A program made the translations under genes and the position numbers. Below are positions 7,122-12,227 of a stretch of 64,000 bases of DNA, one piece after another. The notes beneath the pieces were generated by a model that did no database searches, was not told where the DNA came from, and saw only the letters and a program-made list of their open reading frames with translations. The stretch is from Escherichia coli (lineage in GTDB: Bacteria; Pseudomonadota; Gammaproteobacteria; Enterobacterales; Enterobacteriaceae), in assembly GCF_003334785.1 (NCBI RefSeq), contig NZ_QOWV01000002.1; one strand, 5' to 3'. Positions within the stretch are counted from its first letter, which is position 1; every line of letters starts with the position of its first letter.

Positions 7122-7292
7122 TACCACTTTTACTCCGTTTTATTCACGGGACACTGCCTGGATATTATGGCGAGCAATATTGGCAGATGTCCAACTATGC
7201 CAGAAAAGGGGGAAAAAAACTGCTGGAGCTTGCGATTTACAGGTGAATTGAAAAACGCCAGCGGCAGAGCTGGCGCTTTAATTACGGGGGTA

Positions 7293-8986: not shown

Positions 8987-9030
8987 TTACTTGCGGTAGA
9001 AAAATAAAATTCGGCGCAATTCTAACAGGG

Positions 9031-9046
9031 AAAGCAAACGTTTGCG
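9031..9046. promoter_or_regulatory. PurR operator (pur box) for purMN
   Basis: aaGCAAACGTTTGCga contains the palindromic PurR core GCAAACGTTTGC; lies in the purM-upp divergent spacer upstream of purM. Confidence 0.7.
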
Positions 9047-9243
9047 AGACTGCTTTACACAACCTTTTTGCACGTCTTTTCCCCAGGCGCGCGGCGAAAG
9101 AAGACTTGTGCCAGGGTAAAGGTTAGTTTTCGGATGGAATAATCTTCTTTCATAACCATCTGAATATAAAATAACTTTATCTCAAACCGTTATCATTTTG
9201 ACTAAAGTCAACGAAAAGAATATTGCCGCCTTGAAGAAAGGAG

Positions 9244-9267
9244 GTATAATCCGTCGATTTTTTTTGT
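9244..9267 (+). promoter_or_regulatory. upp promoter -10 (TATAAT) followed by the initially transcribed T-tract (GATTTTTTTTG)
   Basis: TATAAT hexamer then a run of about 8 T ~30 nt upstream of the upp ATG; matches the known UTP-sensitive reiterative-transcription control of upp. Confidence 0.65.
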
Positions 9268-9292
9268 GGCTGCCCCTCAAAGGAGAAAGAGT

Positions 9293-9919
9293 ATGAAGAT
9301 CGTGGAAGTCAAACACCCACTCGTCAAACACAAGCTGGGACTGATGCGTGAGCAAGATATCAGCACCAAGCGCTTTCGCGAACTCGCTTCCGAAGTGGGT
9401 AGCCTGCTGACTTACGAAGCGACCGCCGACCTCGAAACGGAAAAAGTAACTATCGAAGGCTGGAACGGCCCGGTAGAAATCGACCAGATCAAAGGTAAGA
9501 AAATTACCGTTGTGCCAATTCTGCGTGCGGGTCTTGGTATGATGGACGGTGTGCTGGAAAACGTTCCGAGCGCGCGCATCAGCGTTGTCGGTATGTACCG
9601 TAATGAAGAAACGCTGGAGCCGGTACCGTACTTCCAGAAACTGGTTTCTAACATCGATGAGCGTATGGCGCTGATCGTTGACCCAATGCTGGCAACCGGT
9701 GGTTCCGTTATCGCGACCATCGACCTGCTGAAAAAAGCGGGCTGCAGCAGCATCAAAGTTCTGGTGCTGGTAGCTGCGCCAGAAGGTATCGCTGCGCTGG
9801 AAAAAGCGCACCCGGACGTCGAACTGTATACCGCATCGATTGATCAGGGACTGAACGAGCACGGATACATTATTCCGGGCCTCGGCGATGCCGGTGACAA
9901 AATCTTTGGTACGAAATAA
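9293..9919 (+). CDS. upp: Uracil phosphoribosyltransferase
   Basis: 208 aa from [14 protein letters not shown]; PRPP-binding motif [12 protein letters not shown]; the ORF track extends 9 codons upstream from a GTG. Confidence 0.93.
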
Positions 9920-9935
9920 AGAATAAAAATAATTA

Positions 9936-9964
9936 AAGCCGACTTTAAGAGTCGGCTTTTTTTT
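9936..9964 (+). terminator. Hairpin plus T-run between upp and uraA (intra-operon terminator or attenuator)
   Basis: AGCCGACT-ttaag-AGTCGGCT followed by TTTTTTTT. Confidence 0.6.
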
Positions 9965-10004
9965 GAGTAAAGCGCCTATAACACATAATACAGAGGATAA
10001 TACT

Positions 10005-11294
10005 ATGACGCGCCGTGCTATCGGGGTGAGTGAAAGACCGCCACTTTTACAGACAATCCCGCTTAGTTTGCAACATTTGTTCGCCATGTTTGGTGCAACC
10101 GTCCTGGTGCCCGTCTTATTTCATATTAACCCGGCGACTGTACTGTTATTTAACGGTATTGGAACGCTGCTGTATCTCTTCATCTGTAAAGGGAAAATTC
10201 CGGCTTATCTTGGTTCCAGCTTTGCCTTTATTTCACCGGTATTGTTACTGTTGCCGTTAGGGTATGAAGTCGCGCTGGGCGGCTTTATTATGTGCGGCGT
10301 GCTGTTCTGCCTGGTTTCTTTTATCGTGAAGAAAGCGGGGACCGGCTGGCTGGACGTGCTGTTTCCACCTGCGGCAATGGGCGCAATCGTTGCCGTCATC
10401 GGTCTGGAGCTGGCGGGCGTAGCTGCCGGTATGGCGGGTTTACTCCCGGCTGAAGGGCAAACGCCAGACTCCAAAACCATCATCATCTCTATTACCACCC
10501 TGGCGGTCACGGTTTTAGGTTCCGTGCTGTTTCGTGGTTTCCTGGCAATTATCCCGATTTTAATTGGCGTGCTGGTGGGGTACGCGCTCTCTTTCGCAAT
10601 GGGAATTGTCGATACCACGCCGATTATTAATGCTCACTGGTTTGCGCTGCCAACCCTCTATACGCCGCGCTTCGAGTGGTTTGCCATTCTGACTATTCTG
10701 CCAGCGGCGTTAGTGGTTATTGCCGAACACGTAGGGCACCTGGTAGTAACGGCTAATATCGTCAAAAAAGATCTGCTGCGCGATCCAGGTCTGCACCGTT
10801 CGATGTTTGCTAATGGCTTGTCGACCGTGATTTCCGGCTTCTTTGGCTCTACGCCAAATACTACTTACGGAGAAAACATTGGCGTGATGGCGATCACCCG
10901 TGTTTACAGTACCTGGGTTATCGGCGGGGCGGCGATTTTCGCTATCCTGCTTTCCTGCGTCGGTAAACTGGCTGCCGCTATCCAGATGATCCCATTGCCG
11001 GTGATGGGCGGCGTTTCGCTGCTGCTTTATGGTGTCATCGGTGCTTCCGGTATTCGTGTTTTGATCGAATCGAAAGTGGATTACAACAAAGCACAGAACC
11101 TGATCCTGACTTCCGTGATTTTGATCATCGGCGTCAGTGGCGCGAAGGTAAACATCGGCGCGGCGGAGTTAAAAGGTATGGCGCTGGCGACCATCGTCGG
11201 TATCGGCTTAAGTTTGATCTTCAAACTGATCAGTGTGCTGCGCCCTGAAGAAGTGGTGCTGGACGCAGAAGACGCGGATATAACAGACAAATAA
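10005..11294 (+). CDS. uraA: Uracil permease (NCS2/NAT family)
   Basis: 429 aa from [36 protein letters not shown]; multi-pass membrane protein; the ORF track is extended by 14 codons. Confidence 0.92.
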
Positions 11295-11388
11295 TGTACC
11301 GACCGGGCAGTGTTGCTGCCCGGTTCAAACATCATGGGATTCTGTGGTAAACTTCTCGCGATTTTGTGAAATCCTGGTTGAGGTATCT

Positions 11389-12090
11389 CTGAACACACCG
11401 GCACAGCTCTCTTTGCCACTTTATCTTCCTGACGACGAAACCTTTGCAAGTTTCTGGCCGGGGGATAACTCCTCTTTACTGGCCGCGCTGCAAAACGTGC
11501 TGCGTCAGGAACATAGCGGTTACATCTATCTCTGGGCACGCGAAGGCGCGGGGCGCAGCCATCTGCTGCACGCGGCTTGCGCGGAATTGTCGCTGCGTGG
11601 CGATGCGGTGGGCTATGTCCCGCTGGATAAACGCACCTGGTTTGTTCCGGAAGTGCTCGACGGTATGGAGCATTTGTCGCTGGTCTGTATCGACAACATT
11701 GAGTGTATTGCAGGCGATGAGTTGTGGGAGATGGCGATTTTCGATCTCTACAATCGAATTCTGGAATCGGGCAAAACACGGTTGTTGATCACCGGCGATC
11801 GTCCACCGCGGCAGTTGAATCTGGGATTACCGGATCTCGCGTCGCGACTCGACTGGGGGCAGATCTACAAATTGCAGCCACTTTCTGATGAAGATAAGTT
11901 GCAGGCGCTACAGTTACGCGCGCGTTTGCGTGGTTTTGAACTGCCGGAAGATGTGGGGCGTTTCTTGCTGAAGCGGCTCGACAGAGAAATGCGCACGCTA
12001 TTTATGACGTTGGATCAGTTGGATCGTGCGTCGATTACCGCGCAACGTAAGCTGACCATTCCGTTTGTGAAAGAAATTCTGAAGTTGTAG
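11389..12090 (+). CDS. hda: DnaA-inactivating AAA+ protein Hda (regulatory inactivation of DnaA)
   Basis: DnaA-like AAA+ core ([27 protein letters not shown]); the mature N-terminus ...[18 protein letters not shown] aligns with an in-frame CTG (233 aa); the ORF-track GTG at 11344 would give 248 aa. Confidence 0.85.
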
Positions 12091-12104
12091 ATAAGGTGTT
12101 TATT

Positions 12105-12201
12105 GTCGGATGCGGCGCGAACGCCTTATCCGAACTACGCGAAGTTAATCCATAGTATTCGTAGGCCGGATAAGACGTGGCAAGCGTCGCATCCGGCAAT
12201 G
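12105..12201. repeat. REP/BIME: two inverted REP units between convergent hda and yfgD
   Basis: gtcGGATGCGGCGcgaacGCCTTATCCGaa and GCCGGATAAGacgtggcaagCGTCGCATCCGGCA; the canonical E. coli REP palindrome. Confidence 0.8.
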
Positions 12202-12227
12202 TGCTTCAACTAGCGATGGAGCACATC

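Follow-up and report, generated by a model that had tools for sequence, protein, structure and literature searches.

The genes upp and uraA of Escherichia coli belong to a pyrimidine salvage operon and lie on the same strand, and the short spacer between them contains a hairpin with the look of a transcription terminator. What such a structure does between two genes of one operon is the question that this locus raises. The window that we analyzed is a 64-kb stretch of DNA, in which positions 9200-11400 are E. coli K-12 DNA; a 2501-nt stretch over hda-uraA-upp is 100% identical to MG1655 2618700-2621200, where it lies on the minus strand. The identities of upp and uraA are firm, as both proteins match NCBIfam equivalogs (Table 1). 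The initial annotation had described a strong hairpin followed by eight T at 9936-9964 within an 85-nt spacer between two genes of the same orientation, and had proposed either that it is a partial terminator setting the uraA:upp ratio or that uraA has a promoter of its own downstream. The structure is real, the spacer length and the common orientation are as described, and there are indeed eight T, counted from 9957 after AGTCGGC, the one trivial slip being that the last T of the arm had been counted twice.

Table 1. Features of the upp-uraA locus, in window coordinates.
Feature	Position	Strand	Evidence or remarks
upp-uraA promoter, -35 TTGCCG, 16-nt spacer, -10 TATAAT	9223..9250	+	consensus scan, 10/12 matches
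Transcription start G9256, then A, T8, G (GATTTTTTTTG)	9256..9266	+	SMRT-Cappable-seq TSS 2620909
upp, uracil phosphoribosyltransferase	9293..9919	+	NCBIfam equivalog NF001097, 303 bits; RefSeq annotation
upp stop codon	9917-9919		uraA ATG at 10005, giving a spacer of 85 nt
A-rich spacer, upp stop to hairpin	9920..9934	+	15 nt to the A-U extension, 18 nt to G9938
Terminator hairpin, 11 pairs	9935..9959	+	G+C core GCCGAC/GUCGGC at 9938-9943 and 9951-9956; loop 9946-9948
U8 tract	9957..9964	+	in vivo RNA 3' end at 9964 (PMC6131387 end 2620201, mapped)
uraA leader on read-through RNA, 40 nt	9965..10004	+	Shine-Dalgarno AGAGGA at 9992-9997
uraA, uracil:H+ symporter	10005..11294	+	NCBIfam equivalog NF007995 (uracil permease), 814 bits; RefSeq annotation
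Distal hairpin without U tract	11301..11327	+	fold of 11285-11335, -22.2 kcal/mol; upp-uraA RNA end 11327, 2 nt past the hairpin

The segment 9935-9965 has the sequence AAAGCCGACTTTAAGAGTCGGCTTTTTTTTG. Within the 85-nt spacer, 9935-9959 reads AAAGCCGACTT-TAA-GAGTCGGCTTT, after which the T-run continues to 9964 and is followed by G. The two arms, AGCCGACT at 9937-9944 and AGTCGGCT at 9950-9957, are fully complementary, and an AAA/UUU extension together with a closing U.G pair brings the stem to 11 pairs around a 3-nt loop. The anatomy is thus that of a canonical intrinsic terminator, with a G+C-rich stem-loop built on a core of six pairs and a perfect U8 tract directly 3' of it. The hairpin has an energy of -14.6 kcal/mol, compared with -3.35 +/- 2.17 kcal/mol for 200 shuffled sequences (z = -5.2), none of which folded as well. 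We also scanned both strands of the whole window with a strict custom definition that required a stem of seven or more bp without mismatch, four or more of them G-C, and seven or more T directly adjoining it, and the upp-uraA hairpin was the sole site found, while 100 block shuffles gave a mean of 0.01 sites. A lenient consensus scan of the region returned 6 terminator-like sites where 5.0 were expected, which is about chance. When 9860-9966 was folded, the terminator hairpin was kept and no competing antiterminator appeared in the 3' end of upp.

Several other identities for the structure were considered and set aside. A permissive Rfam scan of 9000-10300 gave no family above threshold (16-28 bits against thresholds of 41-75), and the sub-threshold matches (STnc240, Trp/Phe/Thr leaders, sroD and others) all fell on the hairpin and T-run and reflect a generic likeness to terminators. 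A small ORF running across the hairpin is rejected because changes in loop length between species shift the frame, and a bidirectional terminator because the A/T-rich flank upstream of the hairpin is not conserved. REP-type palindromes are repeated in many copies, and this one occurs once in the window and at one place per E. coli genome. Two inverted REP-like copies (GTCGGATGCGGCG...GCCTTATCCG and CGGATAAGACG...CGCATCCGGCA) are present at 12095-12205, between hda and a convergent arsC-family gene. A further perfect palindrome, GCAAACGTTTGC, lies at 9031-9048 upstream of purM and resembles a PurR box, presumably the PurR operator of purMN.

Published transcript data place an RNA 3' end in vivo at this hairpin. 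SMRT-Cappable-seq, which sequences whole primary transcripts, reports a transcript at 2620201-2620909 carrying b2498 (upp) alone in rich medium, and a transcript at 2618838-2620909 carrying b2498 and b2497 (upp-uraA) in both rich and M9 medium (PMC6131387, Supplementary Data 1). Mapping these coordinates through the MG1655 record, we find that the start at 2620909 is G9256 of the window, within CCGTCGATTTTTTTTG and right after the TATAAT box; that the end at 2620201 is T9964, the last T of the run; and that the end at 2618838 is position 11327. The operon table of that study lists three units from the start at 2620909, namely b2498, b2498-b2497 and b2498-b2497-b2496 (upp, upp-uraA and upp-uraA-hda). 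For hda the table has its own start at 2618805 (window 11360), and across rich and M9 medium it contains no unit that begins with b2497 (uraA) (PMC6131387). An RNA that stops at the end of the U-tract and RNAs that continue past it therefore arise from one and the same start, which is the behavior of a partial terminator and supports the first proposal of the initial annotation. About two thirds of the reads that reach the distal hairpin pass on towards hda. The hda start, G11360, lies in GATTTTG, a sequence that resembles the upp start GATTTTTTTTG.

How often polymerase stops at the hairpin is less easily read from these data. In the rich-medium sheet, 214 reads are assigned to the start at 2620909, of which 24 end at 2620201 and 30 at 2618838, and the row for 2620201, a site labelled 'novelTTS' in the supplementary table, carries 4 and 154 in its other two count columns (PMC6131387). 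The 'passing-through' and 'within 50 bp downstream' columns of the Rich_TTS sheet seem to be swapped relative to their header. The header as printed (4 reads as read-through and 154 within 50 bp) cannot hold, since 30 reads that share this start extend another 1363 nt before they end, and the median read-through is given as 1544.5 nt; row 2705019 of the same sheet contains the same inconsistency. We infer that 154 is the read-through count for 2620201. On that assignment the apparent termination in rich medium is ∼13% (24 of the 182 reads reaching the site), a value that is a floor and not a measurement because only cDNA of 1-6 kb had been selected for the libraries (PMC6131387) and the 709-nt upp-only product is consequently under-counted. 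In the M9 sheet, 260 reads are found at the start, 37 end at 2618838 and 95 pass further, and the 2620201 site is not called (PMC6131387). The curated MG1655 Term-seq list (PMC7815308) contains no 3' end anywhere in 2619xxx-2621xxx, and the Term-seq supplements of PMC7815308 and PMC12207403 have no entry for upp, uraA or 26202xx. The annotation's expectation of a 3' end at the T-run is thus upheld by SMRT-Cappable-seq and finds no counterpart in the curated Term-seq list. The absence of the site from that list and from the M9 calls suggests that termination here may be weak or condition-dependent.

Based on the structure and the transcripts, we conclude that the hairpin is very probably a Rho-independent terminator inside the upp-uraA operon that works part of the time. 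Transcription would begin at G9256 and proceed through upp, upon which the RNA would fold into the 9935-9959 hairpin while polymerase stands on the U8 tract. Some polymerases would release there and yield a 709-nt upp-only mRNA ending at U9964, whose 3' hairpin should protect it against 3' exonucleases. Other polymerases would read through, which is the only recorded route to the transcription of uraA and, in part, of hda. An element of this kind would keep the mRNA level of the transporter below that of the enzyme, and we infer that setting this ratio is its purpose.

The start from which these RNAs arise is a conserved element in its own right, as GGTATAAT is found across nearly all Enterobacterales loci. 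We take 9256-9266 to be the UTP-sensitive start-site and reiterative-transcription element of upp; Tu and Turnbough are said to have described UTP-sensitive start-site selection and reiterative transcription at upp in 1997. Conservation of this UTP-sensing promoter element extends to the pattern TATAAT-N5-GA-Tn but not to the length of its T-run, which is 7 to 9 depending on the species; the T-run of the terminator is fixed at 8. The -35 and -10 hexamers given for upp-uraA in PMC3946193 are those found here. The initially transcribed sequence GTCGA-T8-G (9256-9266) resembles the 3' arm of the terminator, GTCGGC-T8-G (9951-9965).

Comparison between species adds what the initial annotation could not see, namely an extreme conservation of the hairpin and, as described below, its likeness to the pyrE attenuator. 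We collected 80 upp loci, one genome per species, of which 79 have uraA downstream and one is too short to tell; with Xenorhabdus and a Providencia-like contig added, 81 upp-uraA junctions were available. The hairpin is present in all 81, which span Enterobacteriaceae, Yersiniaceae, Erwiniaceae, Pectobacteriaceae, Hafniaceae, Morganellaceae and others. Of the 78 loci that a regular expression matched, 65 have the arms GCCGACT/AGTCGGC, 74 have a T-run of exactly 8, and in 75 a G comes directly after the run. Around these fixed elements the surroundings vary, with 25 loop forms, differing flanks on both sides and spacers of 56 to 533 nt. The 12 core positions of the stem diverge from E. coli at 1.1% of sites (11/972), against 49% for four-fold degenerate positions within the neighboring 59-60 codons of upp and uraA.

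The position of the hairpin relative to the two genes also differs between species. In 43 of the 78 regex-matched loci, mostly Enterobacteriaceae including E. coli, the upp stop lies 17-19 nt from the G of the GCCGAC arm; in 28, comprising other families as well as Cedecea and Buttiauxella, it lies 5-13 nt and mostly 5-9 nt from the stem; and in the remaining 7 the distance exceeds 90 nt owing to insertions. Insertions of 90-180 nt between the upp stop and the hairpin were seen in some Yersinia (three loci), in Pantoea (two loci) and in Brenneria, whose 533-nt spacer contains a tandemly repeated unit with a terminator-like hairpin at its own end. These insertions are probably small mobile or repeated elements, and the upp-uraA hairpin is retained in every species that carries one. 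Downstream, the T-run is 40 nt from the uraA ATG in E. coli, 24-50 nt in most species and 24-31 nt in some, and within the uraA leader a (C/T)AGAGGA box upstream of the ATG is conserved while the remainder is not.

An alignment of 64 distinct sequences indicates what is being conserved. Across eight base pairs, all 486 of 486 cells contain standard pairs, and the few stem variants are A-U to G.U and G-C to G.U changes (A to G in the 5' arm, C to U in the 3' arm) plus a single two-sided G-C to A-U change in Erwinia persicina. All of these variants would mismatch on the opposite strand, and covariation is minimal because the stem hardly varies. As every substitution pairs only in the sense-strand RNA, the object under selection is the sense-strand RNA helix and not the DNA. 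Other terminators of the neighborhood do not behave in this way. For the purN terminator of these loci (∼7246-7275, minus strand), nearly every genus has a hairpin of its own. In this window that terminator reads GCGCCAGC-TCTGCC-GCTGGCG-TTTTT (7246-7275, minus strand), and the consensus scan missed it there. The hairpin 3' of uraA keeps its lower stem within Enterobacteriaceae only, shows covariation in its upper stem and is replaced outside the family. Outside the order, in Vibrio, Shewanella, Aeromonas and Pasteurella, upp does not have uraA next to it and ends in unrelated terminators. The internal terminator is the most conserved non-coding element of the upp-uraA operon, above the UTP-sensing promoter.

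This degree of conservation is not what is expected of the class to which the hairpin would otherwise belong. The intra-operon terminators of prs-dauA and dapA-bamC likewise combine a canonical hairpin and U-tract between co-oriented genes, and they yield terminated and read-through RNAs from one start such that leak-through sets the level of the downstream transcript (PMC6131387). Unlike what would be expected of that class, the upp-uraA hairpin is far more conserved (1.1% stem divergence across the order, against 49% at four-fold sites). In the same study a perfect U8 goes with low, not high, read-through (PMC6131387), and the upp-uraA terminator has a perfect U8. The element is ordinary in kind and its 3' end was already present in a public dataset; the conservation is the new part, and it is not obvious why a plain terminator that sets a ratio would need a stem of fixed sequence.

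Given the place of the operon in pyrimidine salvage, we compared the hairpin with two classical UTP-sensitive attenuators of MG1655. The rph-pyrE attenuator of E. coli and Salmonella couples transcription to translation in a UTP-sensitive manner. Its junction in MG1655 has the sequence TGA-TTTTTAA-GGCGACT-GATG-AGTCGCC-TTTTTTTT-G and is followed by 33 nt to the pyrE ATG; the known rph-1 frameshift of this strain introduces a stop (TAG) 27 nt further upstream of the rph stop. The attenuators lie at L088:2780-2830 (minus strand) and, in loci L090-L095, just upstream of position 1001. The two hairpins are both intercistronic and upstream of a pyrimidine gene, and their stems match at six of seven pairs (GGCGACU/AGUCGCC versus GCCGACU/AGUCGGC at upp), the second pair being flipped. 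Both are followed by U8-G, and GAAA, GAAG and GAGA loops occur in both sets, in the case of upp-uraA in hairpins from outside Enterobacteriaceae. In both systems the hairpin sequence is conserved across Enterobacterales, with the pyrE form GGCGAC(U/C)...(A/G)GUCGCC nearly fixed in seven genera (MG1655 plus six) and the rph stop 5-9 nt upstream in all 7 junctions; in most upp species outside the 17-19-nt group the ORF stop is likewise 5-9 nt from the stem. The pyrBI (pyrL) attenuator shares a 7-bp G+C stem, a 4-nt loop, exactly T8 followed by G and ∼30 nt to the structural gene, but its stem (GCCCCUC/GAGGGGC) is unrelated and its leader ORF crosses the hairpin instead of ending upstream of it.

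These likenesses raise the possibility that the upp-uraA hairpin is a regulated attenuator of the pyrE type, a reading that would elaborate on the leaky terminator rather than replace it and that we regard as possible, though not the likelier case. At low UTP, polymerase would slow on the U-tract and a ribosome finishing upp would hinder the hairpin, giving more read-through; when UTP is plentiful the hairpin would fold, and shut-off would be stronger for uraA than for upp. The order of elements agrees with rph-pyrE throughout, from an ORF stop and a few nucleotides to hairpin, U8, G, 33-40 nt and the ATG of a pyrimidine gene, and outside the 17-19-nt group the stop falls 5-13 nt before the stem, within or near the range seen at rph. 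The sequence conservation of the pyrE hairpin, which the ordinary purN terminator of the upp loci does not share, points in the same direction. The 3' end was called in rich medium and not in M9 (PMC6131387), a difference that rests on the calling threshold. Furthermore, uraA is among the most changed pyrimidine genes in three transcriptome studies, in whose main-text top lists upp is absent, although these hints could also reflect mRNA stability.

The attenuator reading meets its main difficulty in E. coli itself. Here and in most Enterobacteriaceae 15-18 nt separate the upp stop from the stem, a distance that, judging from ribosome footprints, a ribosome waiting at the stop codon would not span, so that in this window the upp ORF would end too far from the hairpin for such coupling. 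Some upp loci, in about 7-8 species, even tolerate the 90-180-nt insertions between stop and hairpin. The RNA before the upp-uraA stem, AGAAUAAAAAUAAUUAAAG, is A-rich and offers no U-rich pause stretch comparable to the UUUUUAA that precedes the pyrE stem.

The likeness of the stems is also weakened by how widely the stem is used. We scanned metagenome contigs for the pattern CGACT-N3-6-AGTCGSC-T6 and found it at 11 upp-uraA loci, 6 rph-pyrE loci, nine copies of the sRNA FnrS and dozens of unrelated terminators of other environments. One FnrS copy (Rfam RF01796, 134.8 bits) lies at L170:8255-8372 between zntB-like and dbpA-like genes; across this and the eight other copies the terminator loop is variable and 8-9 U follow. 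The 7-bp stem of the FnrS terminator, GCCGACU/AGUCGGC, is identical to that of upp-uraA and is likewise followed by 8 or more U. In view of these contexts we rejected the stem as a pyrimidine-specific signature; it is a commonly used terminator design, and its likeness to pyrE is only modest evidence. The sequence-conserved terminators met in this work, those of pyrE and of FnrS (for the latter, stem conservation is known only through a scan that required the stem), do more than stop transcription, and by this reasoning the upp-uraA hairpin probably does so too. What that additional role might be we suggest tentatively: a second pyrimidine-sensing step of the pyrE type, arisen by descent or convergence and dependent on UTP and the ribosome, or an invariant stem that is read by a specific factor.

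A different account of the 3' end is that it results from processing. All polymerases would then read through, and the hairpin would halt 3' exonucleases after a downstream endonucleolytic cleavage, thereby stabilizing upp. Long-read 3' ends cannot separate termination from exonuclease trimming back to a hairpin, the sequence just 3' of the hairpin is A/U-rich as RNase E prefers, and the distal end at 11327, 2 nt past a hairpin without a U tract, has the appearance of trimming. Yet a protective hairpin needs no U8, and the upp-uraA hairpin is followed by exactly 8 T in nearly all species. Its RNA end at the last U of the tract is moreover the classic position of release in an element of textbook terminator anatomy. 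We therefore consider processing unlikely and favor termination at the hairpin as the origin of the end, with a true efficiency presumably above the apparent one.

Conservation beyond that of a plain terminator could also be explained if Hfq, ProQ or another specific factor bound the terminated upp 3' end or, on RNAs that read through, the hairpin. A hairpin with a long U tail is a known Hfq 3' module, and the identity of the stem with the FnrS terminator fits such a role. FnrS is, however, a free-standing Hfq-dependent sRNA with a long conserved upstream body, and nothing non-coding is conserved upstream of the upp hairpin: the 5-19 nt between stop and hairpin are unconserved, leaving neither a single-stranded seed nor an sRNA body, and no Rfam family reaches threshold here. 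Binding of chaperones to terminators is mainly structure-specific and not sequence-specific. The papers that we found naming uraA together with Hfq and sRNA draw no link between them in E. coli. On balance we consider a chaperone or factor module at this site quite improbable.

The second proposal of the initial annotation, a promoter for uraA downstream of the hairpin, is not supported. With a uraA promoter within or beside the spacer, the hairpin would be a full stop for upp. A promoter-like match (TTGGTA-16-AATAAT) does exist at 9906-9933, and in many species the T8-G followed by A creates TTGA.. hexamers resembling a -35 box. Nevertheless, the 9906-9933 match lies in unconserved sequence and is dismissed as chance, since promoter-like sites are fewer than expected (2 found against 3.3). 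The 24-50 nt between T-run and ATG in most species count against a promoter as well, the 40 nt of E. coli and the 24-31 nt of some species being too little to accommodate a promoter and a leader. Under two growth conditions no unit starts at b2497, and many reads from the upp start cover uraA (PMC6131387). A separate uraA promoter is therefore very unlikely. A role of the inverted repeat as the DNA operator of a dimeric regulator, for which its perfect and sequence-conserved palindrome could be cited, is hardly tenable and was rejected because the arm spacing differs by 1 nt in 26 of the 64 distinct sequences and substitutions keep G.U pairing on the sense strand only, in addition to which the adjoining T8 is as conserved as the arms and the single copy per genome forms no regulon-like set of repeats.

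The reading that we prefer, a terminator that acts part of the time between upp and uraA, agrees with the main interpretation of the initial annotation, which holds, and this instance was already on record as a line in a supplementary table. On its own it is routine operon architecture in the best-studied bacterium, and, for the two growth conditions covered, it points to read-through rather than a promoter of its own as the route by which uraA is transcribed. The conservation of the hairpin and its likeness to pyrE lead to a testable hypothesis, namely that uracil uptake has a second point of control by pyrimidines, and if the pyrE-type reading is true uraA would have a wider regulatory range than upp. 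This would be of relevance to fluoropyrimidine uptake by gut bacteria. More generally, sequence fixation across an order may serve as a marker of terminator hairpins that do more than terminate.
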